From positions 1 to 64,000 of IMG/VR virus record IMGVR_UViG_3300049182_000044: a DNA stretch of 64,000 nucleotides; one strand, written 5' to 3'. The translations under genes and the position numbers were made by a program. This document shows positions 16,460 to 61,057 of the stretch, one piece after another. This stretch comes from a virus (taxonomy: Duplodnaviria > Caudoviricetes). The notes beneath the pieces are model-generated. The model saw only the letters and a program-made list of their open reading frames with translations, did no database searches and was not told the origin of the DNA. Positions within the stretch are counted from its first letter, which is position 1. Each line of letters begins with the position of its first letter.

Positions 16460-16741
16460 TTAGCCCATACGAGCTAAGTCTTTAAGCTTCAGTACTTCGA
16501 CTGTCAGCTTGGGGTTGTCGATCAGACCTTGCAGCGTGTTCTTACCTTTCAGAATTTCCAGCTGATATTCCGTCTGGCCGTAGTCTTGCACGAGCTTGCG
16601 TGGCGACTCTGCACTGTTGAGAATCACCTTCTGATTGTCGAGGATAATGTACGGGAACTGGAACGCATCGATCTTGACCGTGTAGTGGTCAGGATGCGTG
16701 ATCTTCCCACCTGTGATGCGCAAATGAATATCTGTTTTCAT
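16460..16741 (-). CDS. Hypothetical protein
   Basis: Start moved to MKTDIH at 16741 (ATGA coupling). Confidence 0.6.
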   Translation of the reverse strand: MKTDIHLRITGGKITHPDHYTVKIDAFQFPYIILDNQKVILNSAESPRKLVQDYGQTEYQLEILKGKNTLQGLIDNPKLTVEVLKLKDLARMG

Positions 16742-17223: not shown

Positions 17224-17544
17224 TTAATCACCAGGCTTTCTGCCTTGCGGCCAGAAGTGCTTTTCAGCACAGCGAGGACAAAACACGAGTCTGCAATCCA
17301 AGCAGCGTATTTCATCCCGTGTTTCAAATATTGGGTATTTGCAGGTGGCACACCAGCGCATGTGAATATCCCTATACGCTTTCAATACCGCTTCAGTGAA
17401 CTTCCACTGTTCGGTTGGAATATTCGTGGGAACTTCTTGTCCGGTTTTCTTGTACGCCACACCCATGACATAGCGCTGATCTCGCCAGTCACCAGTCGGA
17501 CTATACTCACCATCACCCTGAGGGGTTGTGCCTTTGACTAACAT
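17224..17544 (-). CDS. Zn-finger protein
   Basis: CATC..CLDC..CPRCAEKH. Confidence 0.6.
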   Translation of the reverse strand: MLVKGTTPQGDGEYSPTGDWRDQRYVMGVAYKKTGQEVPTNIPTEQWKFTEAVLKAYRDIHMRWCATCKYPIFETRDEIRCLDCRLVFCPRCAEKHFWPQGRKPGD

Positions 17545-17987
17545 CAGTCGCCTCGGTCTTTAATCAACTTCAACACCGGCACCAGGTGACGGCACACGAG
17601 AGGCACATTACCTGGATTGCGCACGACCGCTGGTTCACCATTGGAGTGCTTGATTCTCGCTGCACCCCAAGTGCTCAAAGCGTATTCGCAGTAGAACAGG
17701 AAGAACTCACAGTCACAACTGACAATCACACGCTTCTGCCCAGCTACCTTGTTCTTTTCAGGATCAAGGCCAATGACATGGCACTTGTGCGGCTTGTGGC
17801 GTTGTGGAAACACCGTTTGGCAAATCGCTTGCAACGCTGTGTGCCCACCCTTCGTCTTCGCCTTACCGTACTTCTTGACCACAACTTGATCGCGTGCTTG
17901 CTCTTTGATGTATCGAGGTGTATTCTTCAACAGCCCAACTATGCTGAGTCCTTTCTCGATACGCGCTTTGTCAACGGGAGTTGCCAC
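17544..17987 (-). CDS. SWIM-type zinc-finger protein
   Basis: VSCDCEFF..VCRH = CxC(x)nCxH. Confidence 0.65.
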   Translation of the reverse strand: MATPVDKARIEKGLSIVGLLKNTPRYIKEQARDQVVVKKYGKAKTKGGHTALQAICQTVFPQRHKPHKCHVIGLDPEKNKVAGQKRVIVSCDCEFFLFYCEYALSTWGAARIKHSNGEPAVVRNPGNVPLVCRHLVPVLKLIKDRGD

Positions 17988-17999
17988 GATATTTCTCCA

Positions 18000-19397
18000 T
18001 TAGATATTCGGGTCTGAAATGCGAACAATATCGTCTTCACCGAGGTATGAACCATTCTGAACTTCGAGCACTACGAGGTCTTCACTACCCTCGTTAGCTA
18101 GGCTATGTACAAACCCAGCTGGAATGTCAGCGTACTGCCCAACATTCAATTCGATGCGCTGCAAGCTATCCTGCTTGAACGTGCTGCCAATCGTAACTAC
18201 CGCCTTACCTTTCAAAACCGTCCAGCGTTCATCACGCGACGTATGGTACTGCAGCGAAATAGCTTTGCCTGGCTTGATCGTGAGGCGTTTGACCTTAACG
18301 AATGGAAGCTCTTCAAGAATCTTGTAGGAGCCCCAAGGACGATCAACAACTTTGAGTTCAGTCAGTACATCAGGTGCCGACTTGTCGTTCTTCAAATTAT
18401 CAACCAAATCACGAACTTGATGCGTTTGACCCCTTGCTGAAATGAGAAGTGCGTCTTCAGTGTCAATAACGATCAGGTCGTGAACACCAATCAGTCCGAC
18501 TACTTTGTTCTTCGGTGCGCACACTGAGTTCATTGTGCAGCTAACTTCAACTACATGCTCCGCAGGAGTTAACTTATCAATCATCTGATCGAACACGCCA
18601 AGGTCGTTCCATTTGAAACGAGCTTCGAGTACCGTCAAGTCATCCAGATGCTCGAATACATCGTACTCGATTGAGGACATCTTAACGGCTGGGCCGTCCA
18701 TCATGTAGGTGCATTCTTCCGAATTGCCTGAAATCAGGTATCGCTCACTCGCACTGATCGGAATGTACTTGTGTACGTCTGCCATGAAGCGCTGTGCTGG
18801 GAAAGCTGTGATGCCGCTATTCCACAAAGCACCGCTTTGAATTAGTGTACGAGCTGTTGCCTCCAACGGCTTTTCGAGGAATGAATCCACGATGTGAACA
18901 CGCCCGTCATAGTCACAATCACGCTTGTATGTGATGTAACCGAACTGCGTCGAAACCGTCCAAGGCTTGATGCCCATGAGAGCGATCTCGTTACGCTGAT
19001 CCGCCAGACTGCAAATCATCTCTGCATCAAGCACCCACTGGTCAATAGGATCAATGTCGTGATCTGAAGCCATCAACAAGATGGTCGCGCTTGGATTGAG
19101 TTGAGATGCAGCAAGCGCAATATGCGTGGTCCCATTGTTGAACGGACCTACCATCCAGTTGACCCGCTTGCACTGACTACCCAGTTCAACTGCTTCACGG
19201 CGAGCCTGTTGGTACAGCTCTTGAGTGATCGCTACTACGATGAACGAACACTCCAACGCTGATGCGCGAATCAATGCCTTTTGAAACAGCGTCTGCCCGT
19301 CGCTCAAACGAATGAACTGCTTGGGATTTTGTACGCGCGAATACGGCCACAGTCTTTCTCCTTTGCCTGCGGCCATGATTACTGGAACGATATGCAT
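18000..19397 (-). CDS. manC: Mannose-1-phosphate guanylyltransferase / mannose-6-phosphate isomerase
   Basis: VIMAAGKGERLWPYSR..PKQF, ASDH, FLEKP, WNSG, SIEY, WNDLG; C-terminal cupin RPWG..ISLQYH..E.W..EVQNG.YLGEDDIVR. Confidence 0.95.
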   Translation of the reverse strand: MHIVPVIMAAGKGERLWPYSRVQNPKQFIRLSDGQTLFQKALIRASALECSFIVVAITQELYQQARREAVELGSQCKRVNWMVGPFNNGTTHIALAASQLNPSATILLMASDHDIDPIDQWVLDAEMICSLADQRNEIALMGIKPWTVSTQFGYITYKRDCDYDGRVHIVDSFLEKPLEATARTLIQSGALWNSGITAFPAQRFMADVHKYIPISASERYLISGNSEECTYMMDGPAVKMSSIEYDVFEHLDDLTVLEARFKWNDLGVFDQMIDKLTPAEHVVEVSCTMNSVCAPKNKVVGLIGVHDLIVIDTEDALLISARGQTHQVRDLVDNLKNDKSAPDVLTELKVVDRPWGSYKILEELPFVKVKRLTIKPGKAISLQYHTSRDERWTVLKGKAVVTIGSTFKQDSLQRIELNVGQYADIPAGFVHSLANEGSEDLVVLEVQNGSYLGEDDIVRISDPNI

Positions 19398-19411
19398 ATT
19401 GCGCTTTCTGT

Positions 19412-20518
19412 TTAGATTAAGTGTGAGTAGAGCGCCTCACCGTTAAAGAACTTATCAAGGTGCGGCTGATAGAGTTCCATCTTGTGACGCATGATTTCCT
19501 TTGTCTTTACAGCATGAACAATCCAGTCACACAGCTTCTGTTTGTTCCGACGATAGGAGTTCTCGTCGCTGGTCCACACGCTTGGGTACAGGAAGTCCTT
19601 GTGGTACATTTCACGATAGGACAACCGATTCGGCATCAACGGGATTGCACCGTGCAGCGTGCCCTCGTACATACTGATACCCAGGTTTTCATGCAACGAA
19701 CAGCTGAACACGAACTCCGAACGCTGCATCAGTTCATGATACGCACGCTTGTCGAGGCCGAGTTCCTGAGTACACACGAAGCGATAGTCGATCTTGGTCT
19801 CGAGTGTATCACGCAAGTCTTTGAACAACCACGGCTGCTTATCAGAATTGAGCCGATGCGGGAACAGGATGACGTTCTCTTTCTTCTTCGGATACTTGCT
19901 ATTGTACAGCTTGAGATCCTTAAGGTACTCCATCGGCCAGCCAACAACATACGAGCGCGTGTTCTTGCTACGCGGTTCCGGCTGAATGCCGAGAATCTTC
20001 TCGAACAGGCTGAGGTGATAAGCTGATGCGAAATAGTTCTTGTCGTAGGCGTAGTACATCGCCCGTTCAGCGCCATAGCTCCAACGCTTGTCCTTGATCG
20101 TGAAACCAAGGATATCTGTTTCGTCATACGAGCCTGCGTGCCACAAGCCATGCAGTTCTACGTTCAGCTCCATCAGGTCGATCATGTAGCGAATCTGGAG
20201 AACTACTGGATTCCAAGCATCAGTGATAACGATCTTGTCACCGTTCTTGATCGCACCGTCCTGAAACATCTTCGCGAGCTTTGCAAGCTGGGTCGACTTG
20301 TAGATATTGGTCGCCGCCCAATCGAGGAACTGACCAGGCGGTACCTTGTTTGTCACCTTTGCACCAGTAACTTGCTTGACTTGACCGAGATTACGGATGC
20401 ATGTCTTGCGATCAACGTTTTGCGCATGTTCGAGCAGTTGGCGCGGAACGAAACGGAACCACTCTGCACTGTACCGGGATTCGACCGGCTCAATCGGGAG
20501 GATGAATACGTTATGCAC
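19412..20518 (-). CDS. GT-B fold glycosyltransferase (GT4-like)
   Basis: ILFPHRLNSDKQP and SLHENLGISMYEG (Ex7E), PNRLSYREMY. Start moved to GTG 20518 with an AAGGAG RBS. Confidence 0.8.
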   Translation of the reverse strand: MHNVFILPIEPVESRYSAEWFRFVPRQLLEHAQNVDRKTCIRNLGQVKQVTGAKVTNKVPPGQFLDWAATNIYKSTQLAKLAKMFQDGAIKNGDKIVITDAWNPVVLQIRYMIDLMELNVELHGLWHAGSYDETDILGFTIKDKRWSYGAERAMYYAYDKNYFASAYHLSLFEKILGIQPEPRSKNTRSYVVGWPMEYLKDLKLYNSKYPKKKENVILFPHRLNSDKQPWLFKDLRDTLETKIDYRFVCTQELGLDKRAYHELMQRSEFVFSCSLHENLGISMYEGTLHGAIPLMPNRLSYREMYHKDFLYPSVWTSDENSYRRNKQKLCDWIVHAVKTKEIMRHKMELYQPHLDKFFNGEALYSHLI

Positions 20519-21014
20519 TTGCTTCTCCTTTGCCTTGCAGGAATACCGTATCGAAGCCTTTGACGCCTTCAAACTTCAACGTCGCACCGCACTCGCCGTC
20601 CTCATTGACTTCAATTTCAATGTCACGCATGTACCCATACTTGTCGAAGATCTTCTGCATGAGCTGTGCGGCAATCATTTCGCAGCTCTTGAAATCCAGA
20701 GGCAACTGCTTGTCTTCGTACAAGCCCATCAACCAGTTCTGGAACATATGGAACTCGATCTCACGATCATCGTGGAATACCTCAATCGTCACCCGGAACT
20801 TGAAGAGGTGACGATGTGGCGAAGCGAGATACTGCACTTCATCGGGAGCACCTGGATAACGATGAAGGCCATGCTTCTGGAACGTGACGAAGATCGTTGT
20901 CTTGATCTTCTGGATGTTGTTTGAGATCACGCGCTCAGCCATTGCTTTGGCCATTGCCTGGCGCTGCTCCAGCTCAGCTGGCGACGCCTGAGGAATATGT
21001 ACACCGTTCGTCAT
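20511..21014 (-). CDS. dpdL: QueD-like T-fold protein, probable DpdL-type (CDG decarboxylase)
   Basis: YLASPHRHLF = LxxxHRHxF; H..HRH metal site, SCE and EDG motifs; lacks the canonical QueD C-x3-HGH. Start 21014 with an AAGGAG RBS. Confidence 0.6.
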   Translation of the reverse strand: MTNGVHIPQASPAELEQRQAMAKAMAERVISNNIQKIKTTIFVTFQKHGLHRYPGAPDEVQYLASPHRHLFKFRVTIEVFHDDREIEFHMFQNWLMGLYEDKQLPLDFKSCEMIAAQLMQKIFDKYGYMRDIEIEVNEDGECGATLKFEGVKGFDTVFLQGKGEASA

Positions 21015-21015
21015 G

Positions 21016-21963
21016 TTACTCTCCTTGCTGTTGGCCGACGCTGGGAATCTCAGGAGCATCGACAGGTTTCTCTGCGCGAGGAATCGACTTCTCGCCCAGC
21101 TGGGAAGGTTGGCGGCCTTTAACAGTGCCGTCCAACATCAGGTCGTCGCGGAACACGTCTGTGTGCCAGATCTTGCCGTCAACGTGAGCCATCGTGCGAT
21201 CAGTATGGTACGAATTAGAACCGAAGATCCACTCCACACCGCCGATTGCATTGCACCAGAACTCGTCGTAGCCACGTTTGCCTTTCGGCCATTCGTTCAA
21301 CACCTGAAACATATCAGAATTGACTCGCAGCATGTCCGCCATGTACGCGCCGGTCGACTGCTTCGGCATCTTGAACGTAATCAACTGATCCGGAATCTCC
21401 TTCATCAGGTGATTTGGCAGGCAGCGAATGCCATTGACCTTCACGAACTCGAACATGTCTTCGAGTCCGAGCTTCGTGTCGTCCCAGTCTTCGTAGTCGC
21501 GATAATTGATAATGTCGAACTGACCGTACACGTACAGATGCGTATCAGGCTTGTCAGCCTTCGATGCCAGCTCGAACAGCTTGAGCGTCTTGTACGGGAT
21601 CATGTAATCGTCATCAACGTTCAAGTACCAGCAACGATCATTCTCAGACATGGTCCGGAAGGCACCGAAACGATTCTGCCATTCGTCGAACGTTTGCGCG
21701 ATCATCTTCGCTTTGCTGAACTCTGCTGGGTAGTTGATCCAGAGGAGCGCGTTCGTGGTCTGCTTTGCAAGGGCGAACAACAAGGCTTTACGAGTACGTT
21801 CAGCTTCATCCATGAACGACTCTTCCTTGTTGTACGCGATTGTGACTACAGCATTCTCCACATTCATCAAGATGTTAAATGTGGCAGCGTAAAGATCATG
21901 CACACGTTCGTTACCGACGCTGCACAACATTACGTGAATACGGCTGAAATCAGGATTGGTCAT
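21016..21963 (-). CDS. GT-A fold glycosyltransferase-like protein
   Basis: N-terminal VMLCS strand, YLNVDDDY (DxD), GYDE; embedded in the manC-dpdA operon. Confidence 0.55.
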   Translation of the reverse strand: MTNPDFSRIHVMLCSVGNERVHDLYAATFNILMNVENAVVTIAYNKEESFMDEAERTRKALLFALAKQTTNALLWINYPAEFSKAKMIAQTFDEWQNRFGAFRTMSENDRCWYLNVDDDYMIPYKTLKLFELASKADKPDTHLYVYGQFDIINYRDYEDWDDTKLGLEDMFEFVKVNGIRCLPNHLMKEIPDQLITFKMPKQSTGAYMADMLRVNSDMFQVLNEWPKGKRGYDEFWCNAIGGVEWIFGSNSYHTDRTMAHVDGKIWHTDVFRDDLMLDGTVKGRQPSQLGEKSIPRAEKPVDAPEIPSVGQQQGE

Positions 21964-21979
21964 TTGGATCTTTCAGTGA

Positions 21980-22225
21980 TTAACGACGGTTACGTTTCTT
22001 GCTGGCCTTAGCCATCTTCTTGCGCTGCTTGTCCTTGCCCGGGTCGCGCCACTTCTTGTTGTTGCCCACGCGCACCCACATTTCGTCGGGGCCGAGAACA
22101 TCATCGGGACCAACTGCTTGTGCTTCCGGTTCGGCTTCATTACGATCAGGCCCTTCAGTGCTTGTGCCGCCATGAGCTTCTTTGAAGTCCATTTCGTTCA
22201 TGTCGTTCAGTGTGCGATGTTCCAT
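21980..22225 (-). CDS. Hypothetical protein with basic C-terminus
   Basis: 81-aa ORF between dpdA and the GT-A gene. Confidence 0.55.
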   Translation of the reverse strand: MEHRTLNDMNEMDFKEAHGGTSTEGPDRNEAEPEAQAVGPDDVLGPDEMWVRVGNNKKWRDPGKDKQRKKMAKASKKRNRR

Positions 22226-22227
22226 GA

Positions 22228-23886
22228 TTACTTCTTTCCTTTCTTCAGTTTGACCTTCTTTTTACCTTTGACCTTCACAGCCTTCGTCGAATCAATCGAG
22301 ACCTCTTCGTCTTTGATGACCTTCTTGGCTTTCTTTCCGGCCTTCTTATCCTTTACAGCAGCCTTCTTGTCTTGAGCTTCGACCTTCTTCGGCTTCTTTG
22401 GTTTGCCGTCGCCGCCGTTGTTCAGGTCTTGCACGACGCTCTCCATCGCTGATATACGAGCCAGCACACGCTTCTTCTTTTCGTCGAATGTCTGCAATTC
22501 ATTGCCTGCGTTGTCATCACCCGTAGTGGTCTCACCCGTAACAGGGAACAGCGAGTTGGTCAGCGTGATCGGCTTCTCAGAAGTGATCTCCAGGATATTG
22601 CGGTAACGCTTACGCGCCACTTCAATGCCCTTCTCAGTCGCAACGTCGATGAAGTCCATCGCTTGTTTGACAGACTGCAGCTTCGGATGGCTCTTCAACT
22701 GTGTGTACACCAGCTCGTTGTATTCCTTGCTGGTCAACGAATCGGCTGCCTCTTGCAACTGCTTCGAGTAACGCGTCATTTCGATTGCGTTGTGGATCGA
22801 CAGTAGTTCCAGCGTGAAACGATTAGCACCAAAAGCCAGAATGTCAGTGTACTTCAATGCCTTGCAAACCTCGCACTGACATGGCAGCAGCTTCTGAGTA
22901 TTCGGGATTGATCCACGTGAGCCGATCGGGATACGCTTCGATGTGTGATACAGGTCGAACTGGAAGTGGTATGCCTTGTTCGACGCCGACTGAATGTGCG
23001 ACGTAGAGTCAGACGTGATGTGTGGCTTCCAAGTGGAATTGGCGAGCTTCACCAGAACCGGAATGTGCAGCGAACCGAAAACACCCAGCATGTGATATTG
23101 CTTGTATTTCTGTCCGGTGTTCACCAAGTCCCAGATGATGTCCACACCGCCTAACAAACCTTGGCGGTACAAACCACCGACCGCGCAACGAGGCAGACGC
23201 TTGTCTTCAACGATCTTACGATACGCACGACGTTGATTGATATTGTGACCGTGAAAGATGTTCAGCAGCTCCACACCCTTCGCACGCTCGAGCATGATCT
23301 CGGTCGAAGCCTTCTGAAGCTTCGCCGCACGATCAATGATCTCGTCATTAGCGACCGAAAGCGGAAGATCGAGTACCATGCCGGCGTCTGCATTCTGATT
23401 GTAGAACTCAACCAGATCTGCAGGGCTAATGGCTCCGATCATGTCACGCGCCATCTGAAGTCCACCGGAGTCGGACAAAACATTGATACGTTGATCATCG
23501 GGAATGCGGGAAGGAGTACGGGGATTGACCGTGCCCTTCGAGTGCGCGAAGTTCGTCATGATGTATTCGATACCTAGACGCTTGCACACTGAATCGTTGA
23601 ACAGGTTGAAGTCGTAGAACTCGTCAAAGGATTCGCCGTATGGATAGAATGCATCCATCATATCGTTATTGCGAACGATCACGATCTCACGATCAGGACA
23701 AACGAACCAGATATGCGTACTCGTTTGTTCCTTGATCGTGATCTTGTGCGGGTCACCACCTTTGTACTTGATGTAGACTGCGAGACCGCCGAAGCTGCGA
23801 AACAGCGCTGCAGCTGCGACGAATGAGTACCCATGATCCGGGCACGGAGGAGAAGTGTATTTTGTTTTGGTAGATTTGTCGGACAT
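22228..23886 (-). CDS. dpdA: tRNA-guanine-transglycosylase-fold base-exchange enzyme, probable DNA-acting DpdA, with Lys-rich tail
   Basis: SDSGGLQ, MVLD, VGGL, HMLG, SDSTS and Zn site CQCEVC..HN. DNA versus tRNA substrate is inferred from context. Confidence 0.75.
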   Translation of the reverse strand: MSDKSTKTKYTSPPCPDHGYSFVAAAALFRSFGGLAVYIKYKGGDPHKITIKEQTSTHIWFVCPDREIVIVRNNDMMDAFYPYGESFDEFYDFNLFNDSVCKRLGIEYIMTNFAHSKGTVNPRTPSRIPDDQRINVLSDSGGLQMARDMIGAISPADLVEFYNQNADAGMVLDLPLSVANDEIIDRAAKLQKASTEIMLERAKGVELLNIFHGHNINQRRAYRKIVEDKRLPRCAVGGLYRQGLLGGVDIIWDLVNTGQKYKQYHMLGVFGSLHIPVLVKLANSTWKPHITSDSTSHIQSASNKAYHFQFDLYHTSKRIPIGSRGSIPNTQKLLPCQCEVCKALKYTDILAFGANRFTLELLSIHNAIEMTRYSKQLQEAADSLTSKEYNELVYTQLKSHPKLQSVKQAMDFIDVATEKGIEVARKRYRNILEITSEKPITLTNSLFPVTGETTTGDDNAGNELQTFDEKKKRVLARISAMESVVQDLNNGGDGKPKKPKKVEAQDKKAAVKDKKAGKKAKKVIKDEEVSIDSTKAVKVKGKKKVKLKKGKK

Positions 23887-23947: not shown

Positions 23948-24889
23948 TTACTGTTTGGGTAGTCTCATGCCAGGCGGCCTATCAAACCAAGTCAACTTGA
24001 GAAACTCCTTTAATTGCCGTGGATTGAAGCATAGATGGCCCTTTGAAAGAGGGCATGGTGTGTACGAGTCGTAGTGCTCCTTGTAGAACTCGTAGGAATC
24101 ACAGGGCTTCTGCGCCACAATGTCCATGAGCCCTTTGAACGTCGTAACCGCCAGCACTTCATCCCATTGACGATCCCACTTCTTGATCTTCTTGAGATAC
24201 CGAGCCTTCTCCTTCTTTGAGATAGGCTTACCTGTTGCGTACACTACGTCCATAGGACTGTCACGCGAAACATACATCAAGATCCATCCACTGATCTTAA
24301 TGTCGAACATCAACTCGATCAATGCGCAGTACGCCCTGATCTGTGCCACGTTGTGATGGTACGGGAGCATCCCGTGAGACTTCTGAGATTGAATGATTCG
24401 TGCGGAGCTCGTCTTATAGTCGATGACGTAGTACTCTCCGTTCTTGGAGCGCCATATGCCATCCAAATGGCCAGACACATTCTTGAATGCCTTGACGGTA
24501 AGTTCTTCATAGTTCATTCGCCCTTTGCAGATCGGGCACTTGTTCTTTCTCGATATGGCGCGGAAGCCCTTGCAGCCCGGCGTCCGGCATTTCCACTGAC
24601 CGTAAATCTGACCGGCCCGACCCATCCAATCCTGCATAAGCTCGTGAGCTACCGTCCCGACCTCCACGTAATAGCGACCGCTCATGTCAATGTCTTTCTT
24701 AACGTGGGCGGTCATCTGCTTGTAAGCATGCTTCAGCGGGCAGTATGGGAATCCAGATACACGTAACCGTTCTTCGTGAGTCCGCTCGTCTTCTACTTGA
24801 GTGGCTACGGCATCTAGATAGTATTGTTTGAATTCTTTTAGCACTCCCGCCATGTTCACGGTGGCGAATGCAGGTAAATGTCGTGCCAT
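23948..24889 (-). CDS. Cas4/RecB-like PD-(D/E)xK exonuclease
   Basis: YCPLK, GTVAH, GHLDG, IDYKT, QIRAY and a C-terminal Cys cluster; extra CxxxxC..CPIC insert. Confidence 0.8.
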   Translation of the reverse strand: MARHLPAFATVNMAGVLKEFKQYYLDAVATQVEDERTHEERLRVSGFPYCPLKHAYKQMTAHVKKDIDMSGRYYVEVGTVAHELMQDWMGRAGQIYGQWKCRTPGCKGFRAISRKNKCPICKGRMNYEELTVKAFKNVSGHLDGIWRSKNGEYYVIDYKTSSARIIQSQKSHGMLPYHHNVAQIRAYCALIELMFDIKISGWILMYVSRDSPMDVVYATGKPISKKEKARYLKKIKKWDRQWDEVLAVTTFKGLMDIVAQKPCDSYEFYKEHYDSYTPCPLSKGHLCFNPRQLKEFLKLTWFDRPPGMRLPKQ

Positions 24890-59698: not shown

Positions 59699-61057
59699 AT
59701 GAGACAACTACATACTGAAAAAGATGGTATCACTTACATCGACGACATACCGTTCAATGAAGTGAAATGGTACTACATGGCTCCAGTTCCGGATCGCGCT
59801 GCGTTGCAAGAGCCGCCAGAAGGCACTGAGTTCGCCATGTGCAACGATATGTCGAAACGCACGACCCATCCTGGAAGCTTCTTCGTCTGGATTTATCAGA
59901 ACGGGAAGTGGTCTGATATTTCGATTGAAATCGTCCGCAACATCCCCGATTTCATGTCGTACAACGCTGGCGAATGCCCGTGTGGGATCAAACGGCATAC
60001 CGGCATGATCGCTGGGCCTGCGGTACACAACACCGGCCCTCGCGGTACGTTCGGAGGACTGATTCACATCGACGATGCATGGGCATGCGGTCAGGATCAG
60101 ATGTGTAAAGAGAACGTAGATAACACCCGAACAAAGGAACCACAAATGACAATGCCGAGTGATGAAGAACTCGAATTGAACGAGCCGGAAAAGCGTCTGC
60201 GCATCTCCGAAGCATTTTACTCCATCGAAGGTGAAGGCCCGCTTACTGGTGTGCCTACCGTTTTCATCCGCACGTTCGGATGTAACTTCACCTGCTCCGG
60301 TTTCAGCAATCCGACTGGTCAGAAGGTCATTCCGATCAAGATCGACACTTTGCAGAAATTCAAATCGACGGTCGGTTGCGATTCCATCTATTCGTGGCAT
60401 CCGGATTACAAAGACCTCTCTCAGTGGCATACGATCTCGCAACTGGCATCGCACGTAGTTGAAGGATTGCTGCCCGGCGGCAAGGTATTGAATCCCCGCA
60501 CAGGTCAATCGCCCATCCTTTCGTTGACGGGCGGTGAACCGACAATGCACCAGGACGCGATCATTCAGTTGATTAACCATCCGATGATGCAGGACTTCGA
60601 CAAGCTGCTGATCGAAACCAATGCGGCATTCCCGTTGAAGGACGAGTTCATCGAAGGCCTCAATGTGTGGAAAGAGAAGGGTCGTGAGCGTCTTATTATC
60701 TGGGCCTGTTCGCCTAAGCTGAGCATTAGTGGTGAACCGCGTCACAAGGCGATTCGCCCGGAGATCATCGCCGCTCAAATGCAGGTGCGCGATAGTCTCC
60801 ACTATCTCAAGTTCGTTAGTGACGGGTCTACGGAGTCGTTTGAGGAAATCGTTGACACTGTAAAAGAGTACAATGATTACTTGTCGAACTTCATGATGGA
60901 ACTCGATCCGCATTCGATCTACGTCATGCCGATGGGTGCCACCCACGAACAACAAATGGAGATACAGCGCAAGGTCGCAGACAAGTGCCTCGAATACGGG
61001 TACAGCTTCTGCATTCGCGCTCACTGCTTCGTCTATAACAATGAGGTAGGGACATAA
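59699..61057 (+). CDS. queE: 7-carboxy-7-deazaguanine synthase (radical SAM) with a 149-aa N-terminal extension or internal start at 60146
   Basis: ISEAFYSIEGEG..GVPTVFIRTFGCNFTC..GCDS, LTGGEP, IETN, CSPK, LKFV, YVMP. Confidence 0.88.
   Translation: MRQLHTEKDGITYIDDIPFNEVKWYYMAPVPDRAALQEPPEGTEFAMCNDMSKRTTHPGSFFVWIYQNGKWSDISIEIVRNIPDFMSYNAGECPCGIKRHTGMIAGPAVHNTGPRGTFGGLIHIDDAWACGQDQMCKENVDNTRTKEPQMTMPSDEELELNEPEKRLRISEAFYSIEGEGPLTGVPTVFIRTFGCNFTCSGFSNPTGQKVIPIKIDTLQKFKSTVGCDSIYSWHPDYKDLSQWHTISQLASHVVEGLLPGGKVLNPRTGQSPILSLTGGEPTMHQDAIIQLINHPMMQDFDKLLIETNAAFPLKDEFIEGLNVWKEKGRERLIIWACSPKLSISGEPRHKAIRPEIIAAQMQVRDSLHYLKFVSDGSTESFEEIVDTVKEYNDYLSNFMMELDPHSIYVMPMGATHEQQMEIQRKVADKCLEYGYSFCIRAHCFVYNNEVGT

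Follow-up and report, generated by a model that had tools for sequence, protein, structure and literature searches.

A DpdL-family protein encoded between two predicted glycosyltransferases in a phage operon for a putative sugar-bearing 7-deazaguanine

Organization of the locus

The DNA analysed here, referred to as the window, comprises the first 64 kb (64,000 nucleotides) of IMGVR_UViG_3300049182_000044, a 281.6-kb jumbo-phage genome of the Caudoviricetes rated complete by CheckV. Five co-directional genes occupy positions 18000-23886 on the minus strand. They encode a DpdA-like guanine transglycosylase, a glycosyltransferase (GT) of the GT-A fold, a T-fold protein of the DpdL family, a GT4-like glycosyltransferase of the GT-B fold and a ManC-like protein. 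The three central genes (GT-A, T-fold and GT-B), all on the minus strand and in one direction, lie within 19412-21963. A preliminary description of this region had placed a decarboxylase-type gene between two glycosyltransferases, and both flanking open reading frames (ORFs) are indeed glycosyltransferases as judged by predicted fold and motifs. In the order of transcription the genes are as follows.

22228..23886, minus strand: DpdA-like guanine transglycosylase (TGT superfamily), 552 aa, with a Lys-rich C-terminal tail
21016..21963, minus strand: predicted GT-A fold glycosyltransferase, 315 aa, with a DDD (DxD-type) motif at residues 117-119
20511..21014, minus strand: DpdL-family T-fold protein (QueD paralog), 167 aa, with the motif LASPHRHLF
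19412..20518, minus strand: predicted GT4-like GT-B glycosyltransferase, probably retaining, 368 aa, with an EX7E motif
18000..19397, minus strand: ManC-like mannose-1-phosphate guanylyltransferase/mannose-6-phosphate isomerase, 465 aa

Direct reading of the DNA places the start of the DpdL gene at ATG 21014, preceded by GGAG and 4 nucleotides (nt) past the stop codon of the GT-A gene. The GT-B gene starts at GTG 20518, preceded by AAGGAG, and overlaps the DpdL stop codon (20511-20513). With this 4-nt gap and this stop/start overlap, the GT-A, DpdL and GT-B genes are translationally coupled. Longer readings of the GT-B gene (386 aa, from a TTG start) and of the T-fold ORF (182 aa) were rejected as over-extensions. 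A consensus scan of the minus strand found no promoter-like sites between 17400 and 25200 and no terminator-like sites between the operon genes, the single one lying inside the DpdA gene, which is weak evidence for one transcript across the operon. Megablast of the operon against GenBank phages gave no match.

The T-fold protein belongs to the DpdL family

The T-fold ORF contains the sequence L-A-S-P-H-R-H-L-F, in which Leu replaces the catalytic Cys of QueD and Arg replaces a QueD Gly. The signature of DpdL is LxxxHRHxF, in place of the CxxxHGH of QueD (PMC10516641, NAR 2023), and residues H67, R68, H69 and F71 of the window protein are invariant across 30 homologs. It shares 55.8% identity with the protein of ACP17 to which PMC10516641 gives the name DpdL (E 3e-35), and it matches phrog_17812 (E 4e-32). 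A profile built from the 30 homologs finds the DpdL of phage phiST (CGPG_00067) with an E-value of 3e-20 over positions 5-122 of 130. By sequence, the match to DpdL is far beyond chance. None of the 1172 homologs found at E <= 0.001 has a precomputed Pfam domain.

QueD (6-carboxytetrahydropterin synthase, PF01242) appears as a distant T-fold paralog. Comparison of the DpdL profile with a phage QueD profile by hhalign gave a probability of 81% and an E-value of 1.2e-5 over 94 columns, a moderate degree of support. In this alignment HRH is paired with HGH or HGY, SCEM with GCE, and EDGExG with the C-terminal ETxxN, so that both the two zinc-binding histidines and the acidic motif near the C-terminus coincide. 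The link is seen by profile–profile comparison only. HMMER searches with DpdL or the family profile against Pfam, NCBIfam and PDB returned no QueD or PTPS match, and PF01242 is not found in the window protein at E <= 0.1. An ordinary QueD or PTPS enzyme was rejected as the identity of this ORF on three grounds: the Leu in place of Cys, the missing PF01242 match and the presence of a true QueD elsewhere in the genome.

The reading of the LASPHRHLF motif outside a QueD Cys context is thus borne out; the family profile takes in phiST DpdL and is distantly related to QueD. The further statement of the preliminary description, that LxxxHRHxF paralogs had been assigned as decarboxylases of 7-carboxy-7-deazaguanine (CDG), needs one correction, decarboxylation being a proposal in the literature and not an assignment by experiment (PMC10516641).

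Glycosyltransferases and sugar supply

The AlphaFold2 model of the protein encoded downstream of DpdL (mean predicted local distance difference test score, pLDDT, 91.9) has the two Rossmann domains of a GT-B fold. Its top matches in Foldseek and VIA-align are GT4 enzymes, including sucrose-phosphate synthase (Z 24.3, root-mean-square deviation (rmsd) 3.4, 318 aligned residues), BshA (Z 23.8), LmbT (Z 23.1) and the GDP-mannose-bound structures of PimB' and PimA (Z about 21). The two glutamates of the EX7E motif (E277 and E285) are invariant in 31 homologs, together with R222 and K227; the Pfam model Glycos_transf_1 matches weakly (E 0.074). From the model and these residues, the 368-aa protein is predicted to be a GT4-like GT-B enzyme, probably retaining, that has the EX7E motif and binds phosphate through an Arg/Lys pair.

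The protein encoded upstream of DpdL has no family match in Pfam, PHROG or NCBIfam and only 12 homologs among 5.8 billion proteins, in whose alignment D117, D118 and D119 are invariant. Its AlphaFold2 model (pLDDT 81.5) matches GT-A enzymes with a Foldseek probability of 1.00, the VIA-align scores being Z 15.0 for TarS (rmsd 3.0, 204 aligned residues) and Z 14.9 for SpsA. The model suggests that this 315-aa protein is a GT-A (GT2-like) glycosyltransferase with an intact DxD-type motif. No relatives were found in GenBank phages, IMG/VR or JGI metagenomes. The only hint of a wider linkage comes from homologs whose longest contigs are of equal length, at 16598, 31893 and 11125 for GT-A and GT-B, and 8668 for GT-A and DpdL.

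The last protein of the operon contains NTP_transferase, ManC beta-helix and MannoseP_isomer domains (Pfam). TIGR01479 aligns with it end to end at 288.7 bits, under the equivalog cut-off of 372.95. The gene is a likely source of GDP-mannose.

DpdL and the GT-B protein form a conserved module

Neighbourhoods were compared in IMG/VR with the window DpdL and the window GT-B as separate queries, taking for each the best 80 of more than 585 matches; some contigs occur in both sets. In the GT-B-selected loci, DpdL lies upstream on the same strand in 77 of 80, at a distance of at most 300 nt in 58 of them, and one of the three loci without it ends at a contig edge. These loci also contain a PA5oct-type DpdA (70/80), FolE (62/80) and QueE (49/80). 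Starting from DpdL, a GT-B gene is found on the same strand within 6 kb in about 54 of 80 loci, usually directly downstream. When the window, ACP17, PA5oct and phiST are added to the 80 IMG/VR loci, GT-B is present in 56 of the 68 assessable DpdL loci and absent in 12, with 16 further loci lacking sufficient flank.

The same pairing is seen in cultured phages. In ACP17 (E 2e-63) and PA5oct (E 6e-85), the gene that adjoins DpdL on the side of DpdA is a GT-B homolog, and the GenBank phages with the closest DpdL proteins also have GT-B (ACP17, BCSR5, Phosso, X1, BUDD and eleven PA5oct-like phages). phiST has DpdL, and GT-B is found nowhere in its genome. The DpdL/GT-B pair is a conserved module, linked in both directions, in more than 100 other phage contigs. 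The combination seen in the window is therefore not peculiar to it; it belongs to a widespread module that is undescribed in the literature searched.

Genes for DpdA, FolE, QueE and DNA polymerase surround the module. Clustering of the loci reveals a recurring order, which begins with DNA polymerase, an epimerase resembling GDP-mannose dehydratase, a 248-aa protein, DpdA and a 181-aa protein, and continues with DpdL, a 91-aa protein, GT-B, a phosphoribosyltransferase resembling the xanthine enzyme, a HIT-domain protein, FolE and QueE. The epimerase, a member of the short-chain dehydrogenase/reductase (SDR) type, occurs in 61 loci, a GFO/IDH/MocA oxidoreductase in 30, the xanthine-type phosphoribosyltransferase in 91 and the HIT-domain protein in 58. 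In seven loci, DpdL and GT-B are separated by a gene for a free-standing cupin that belongs to the mannose-6-phosphate isomerase type; a ManC identity, considered for this gene, was rejected. Since the pair is conserved in both directions, its genes are translationally coupled in the window and sugar-nucleotide genes recur around it, a functional link between DpdL and the GT-B protein is indicated.

Several of the recurring families differ in their distribution. The xanthine-type phosphoribosyltransferase, HIT and SDR families (for example, L111:8858-9406, L100:9738-10145 and L163:1397-2197, where L numbers denote our loci) are absent from the window genome. The 181-aa protein (for example, L069:5417-5959) is encoded directly upstream of DpdL in 103 loci, has no Pfam match and is labelled 'glycosylase' in phage Phosso. 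The 91-aa protein encoded between DpdL and GT-B (for example, L145:564-836) occurs in 66 loci, likewise with no Pfam match.

DpdA and the supply of 7-deazaguanine

The DpdA-like protein has a partial match to TIGR00432 (E 3.7e-7, residues 332-418), and the Pfam TGT model scores under its cut-off (E 0.014). DSGGLQ and C-x-C-x2-C...H motifs are readable in the protein, and phages GR7B and Motura have homologs that bear a TGT annotation. A six-frame search of the genome found no PF01702, and the protein has no PDB match. Its C-terminal tail (22228-22440, minus strand) comprises about 70 residues, is rich in Lys, Ala and Gly, and includes KK, KKPKK and KKGKK runs. This tail may act as a non-specific DNA tether.

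The window DpdA belongs to a subfamily other than that of PA5oct and ACP17. Its nearest GenBank relative is found in phage NCTB (LT598654.1, 34% identity), which is also the nearest for the DpdA neighbourhood and has a QueC-like gene, with DpdL and GT-B both absent. The same DpdA subfamily is thus combined with different base-supply cassettes in NCTB and in the window. Because the subfamily differs and the NCTB relative stands without DpdL and GT-B, the cassette of GT-A, DpdL, GT-B and ManC looks like a module placed beside a pre-existing DpdA.

The genes expected to feed DpdL are distributed over the rest of the genome. FolE (at 96.9 kb) and the true QueD (at 105.3 kb; 105225-105662) lie outside the window, which contains the third gene.

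59699..61057, plus strand: QueE-like radical SAM enzyme (CDG synthase), 452 aa, of which about 160 form an N-terminal extension

This protein is 35% identical to a viral QueE over 295 aa (tblastn, E 2.5e-46) and matches QueE models weakly. The similarity starts near residue 166, and the extension that precedes it has no family match. The hhalign output shows that the true QueD has C-x3-H-G-Y where the canonical sequence is C-x3-H-G-H. QueC was not found in the 281.6-kb genome. FolE, QueD, QueE and DpdA in a genome that lacks QueC are the context described for DpdL in PMC10516641, and CDG supply genes likewise occur without QueC in ACP17, PA5oct, Phosso and phiST.

The chemistry of DpdL in the presence and absence of GT-B

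The preliminary description pointed to a chemical puzzle, namely that bare 7-deazaguanine offers no C7 side chain to glycosylate, and this puzzle is real. It offered a choice between a different chemistry of DpdL and a sugar placed at another position or on another base. In phiST DNA, deoxy-7-deazaguanine (dDG) replaces all G (PMC10516641). In a tree of DpdL proteins, which has few columns and modest support, those with and without a linked GT-B interleave, with at least five changes of state. When the tree is rooted on phiST, GT-free lineages are basal. All columns conserved to at least 80% in both groups have the same consensus residue in each.

Since the two groups interleave, share their conserved columns and include phiST, with its dDG, in a single family, DpdL chemistry is expected to be the same with and without GT-B. 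On this sequence evidence, DpdL probably yields the same base everywhere and the GT-B enzyme would add a later step. With no sign of a new function in the DpdL sequences, the evidence leans towards a sugar elsewhere than on a C7 side chain, rather than towards a DpdL with altered chemistry. Of the two options, the second is therefore favoured, and the tree, the conserved columns and phiST speak against the first. A hydroxylated pyrimidine, also named as a possible GT substrate, is not supported through a hydroxymethylpyrimidine route; the ThyA family is represented in the genome by a single gene, which scores as an ordinary thymidylate synthase (TIGR03284, 261 bits).

A proposed pathway

From the gene identities, folds, motifs, operon coupling and conserved linkage described above, we infer a pathway that includes the activity of DpdL, the donor sugar, the acceptor atom, the order of glycosylation relative to base exchange and the location of the product. 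We estimate a probability of about 0.5 that the locus is the core of a five-gene operon making a sugar-bearing 7-deazaguanine, most likely in the phage DNA. FolE, QueD and QueE would convert GTP to CDG, where the pathway would stop because there is no QueC. DpdL, a T-fold QueD paralog with a zinc site, would most likely convert CDG to plain 7-deazaguanine, by decarboxylation as proposed for phiST. The DpdA-like transglycosylase would exchange guanine in DNA for this base, and the GT4-like GT-B enzyme would attach a sugar, probably alpha-mannose from the GDP-mannose supplied by the adjacent ManC. The rare GT-A protein might attach a second sugar.

The first sugar would probably be placed directly on the ring system, either on the 2-amino group, as in huimycin, or as a C-glycoside at the electron-rich C7 or C8; a side-chain handle at C7 is less likely. 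As a pyrrole carbon rich in electrons, C7 of 7-deazaguanine could conceivably bear a C-glycoside, and attachment of the sugar might be coupled to the decarboxylation step. More broadly, and tentatively, it is possible that the DpdL/GT-B pair marks a widespread class of DNA hypermodification in which a sugar is joined directly to the 7-deazaguanine ring as an N2- or a C7/C8-glycoside. The module is a plausible variant of DNA hypermodification. No report of glycosylated 7-deazaguanine in DNA was found in the literature searched.

That the product most likely resides in DNA is supported by the nearly constant presence of DpdA with the pair, the replication-gene context and the Lys-rich DpdA tail. 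PA5oct adds to this, as its DNA carries a modified G of undefined structure and resists enzymes with G-containing sites (PMC12191111).

Several points weigh against this proposal. Decarboxylation by DpdL is only a proposal, and when dpdL and dpdA of phiST or of ACP17 were expressed together, no dDG was formed (PMC10516641); the ACP17 experiment omitted the GT-B gene that separates the two. phiST, which is free of GT-B, is the only DpdL-family phage with measured chemistry. The 80-locus samples are biased towards relatives of the window. We know of no case of C-glycosylation by a retaining GT4 enzyme, and a TGT-type pocket would probably accept a base glycosylated at N2 poorly. T4 alpha-glucosyltransferase (AGT), a DNA enzyme, matches the GT-B model with Z 16.6 (rmsd 4.9, 309 aligned residues), below the Z 20-24 of GT4 enzymes that act on small molecules or polysaccharides, and the fold gives no acceptor. 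The GT-B family is mostly acidic (median isoelectric point (pI) 5.5; the window GT-B has pI 9.0), as is the GT-A protein (pI 5.1). Such acidity offers no pointer to DNA binding and would fit an acceptor that is a free base or otherwise not DNA, and the recurring phosphoribosyltransferase and HIT genes would suit free-base or nucleotide chemistry. The sugar may be added to the free base ahead of its insertion into DNA. A GT4 enzyme, a GT-A enzyme and ManC are also the standard toolkit for envelope polysaccharides.

Alternative explanations

If DpdL did not decarboxylate, it could instead, by itself or together with the divergent QueE, furnish C7 with a handle that bears a hydroxyl or an amine, for example hydroxymethyl, and the GT-B enzyme would O-link the sugar to this handle. 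The failed co-expression and the status of DpdL activity as a proposal leave room for this, as does the atypical QueE, with its 452 residues, N-terminal extension and weak model matches, and O-glycosylation of a hydroxymethyl group is the classic route of DNA glycosylation, as in T4 with 5-hydroxymethylcytosine. We nevertheless consider such a handle improbable, given the interleaving of DpdL proteins with and without GT-B, their common conserved columns and the plain dDG in the DNA of phiST, whose DpdL is a member of the same family. Moreover, no conserved reductase or hydroxylase adjoins DpdL in the window, and the known T-fold enzymes of the QueD and PTPS type use no redox cofactor. A different departure from the proposed pathway would leave the product of DpdL and GT-B in solution, as a glycosylated deazapurine or pterin on the model of huimycin and dapiramicin. 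This product would not be built into DNA and could serve, for example, as an inhibitor or regulator of host queuosine or folate metabolism. A PTPS-like T-fold protein, a GT-B enzyme and FolE are the gene logic of pteridine glycosides such as the tetrahydrobiopterin (BH4) glucoside of cyanobacteria, and the BH4 glucosyltransferase of Synechococcus is a structural match to the GT-B model (Z 19.3), albeit outside the best ones. HuiG, the huimycin glycosyltransferase, acts on a free 7-deazapurine base, and the acidity of the GT-B family fits a soluble acceptor, as the recurring xanthine-type phosphoribosyltransferase and HIT protein fit the handling of free bases or nucleotides. A soluble product would nonetheless leave unexplained the DpdA-type transglycosylase in 70 of 80 GT-B loci and in the window, the position of the module inside DNA replication genes and the modification of PA5oct DNA at G; DpdL, moreover, is without the catalytic Cys of PTPS and QueD. 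We regard it as unlikely.

The glycosyltransferases and ManC might also act on the host envelope or on a phage protein, with DpdL serving plain dDG and the adjacency reflecting shared early expression. GT4, GT-A and ManC are typical of polysaccharide and lipopolysaccharide gene sets, some GT-B homologs are labelled 'glycosyltransferase involved in cell wall biosynthesis', neither fold points to a particular acceptor, and the GT-A protein is rare. The linkage is, however, too tight in both directions for such a coincidence, with DpdL directly upstream in 77 of 80 GT-B loci from very different phages and its stop codon overlapping the GT-B start in the window. A serotype-conversion enzyme would be expected with tail or lysis genes and not beside one particular deazaguanine enzyme, and we hold an unrelated role of the glycosyltransferases to be very doubtful.

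Comparison with known systems

The closest known systems are those of phiST and ACP17, which have a DpdL of the same family with the LxxxHRHxF signature and, as in the window, FolE, QueD, QueE and DpdA without QueC (PMC10516641). That paper does not mention the GT4-like enzyme that is coupled to DpdL in the window, ACP17, PA5oct and more than 100 viral contigs. phiST makes plain dDG and has no GT-B, and the window differs further in having a GT-A, ManC and another DpdA subfamily. A catalogue of eight 7-deazaguanine modifications in phage and bacterial DNA contains none with a sugar (PMC10516641).

Modification of a base by the phage followed by the action of one or more phage glycosyltransferases is familiar from the T-even phages, with glucosyl-5-hydroxymethylcytosine, and from phages with arabinosyl-hydroxymethylcytosine. 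The gentiobiosyl-hydroxymethylcytosine of T2 and T6 is a parallel to the possible second sugar in the window. In T-even phages, however, a pyrimidine is made at the nucleotide level and provides a hydroxymethyl handle, whereas the window system would introduce a purine analog by base exchange, with no such handle. The window GT-B is also nearer to GT4 enzymes (Z 24) than to T4 AGT, and the window phage supplies its own enzyme for the nucleotide sugar. To our knowledge, the sugar-bearing bases described in DNA to date derive from pyrimidines.

A precedent for direct glycosylation of the ring comes from huimycin, in which the GT4-like HuiG transfers GlcNAc onto the 2-amino group of a 7-deazapurine (PMC7439116); the dapiramicins have sugars at the same position. 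The huimycin and dapiramicin logic of a preQ0/CDG-type pathway (FolE, QueD and QueE) combined with a GT4-like GT-B enzyme that needs no C7 handle is shared with the window. The huimycin system differs in that it yields a secondary metabolite of an actinomycete, from the free base O-methyl-preQ0, and has QueC but neither DpdA nor DpdL. HuiG is likened to the phage GT-B by type and chemistry, not by sequence comparison.

A 7-deazaguanine-derived base in nucleic acid is likewise glycosylated in vertebrate tRNA, where queuosine is mannosylated by QTMAN (GTDC1) or galactosylated by QTGAL. One of these, the mannosyltransferase, is a GT-B enzyme and the other is a GT-A enzyme. They place their sugars on the cyclopentenediol hydroxyls of queuosine, and in RNA. 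A search of the entire genome for QTMAN_N (PF12038) gave no match at E <= 10.

Were the proposal correct, DNA would, as far as the literature searched shows, have its first known glycosylated base of the purine type, and this base would be present in hundreds of environmental phages as well as in the cultured PA5oct, ACP17 and Phosso. It would combine, within a single base, the two principal means by which phages counter restriction, and would account for the modified G of the PA5oct-like jumbo phages with therapeutic use. It may also explain the failed reconstitution of DpdL, in which the partner gene of ACP17 was omitted, and would provide candidate enzymes for the labelling of nucleic acids. 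As the module occurs in cultured phages, the idea is open to direct mass spectrometry.

Other features near the operon

Further ORFs lie within and beside the operon. The gap between the DpdA and GT-A genes holds a possible small gene, taken from the ORF list only.

21980..22225, minus strand: possible small gene, 81 aa, with a basic C-terminus

Directly upstream of the DpdA gene, 23948-24889 (minus strand) encodes a Cas4-like nuclease of the PD-(D/E)XK type (PF12705, phrog_1706). Directly downstream of ManC, a 147-aa ORF at 17544-17987 (minus strand) matches phrog_18980, a family of unknown function, and shows a C-x-C...C-x-H pattern that resembles a SWIM zinc finger.

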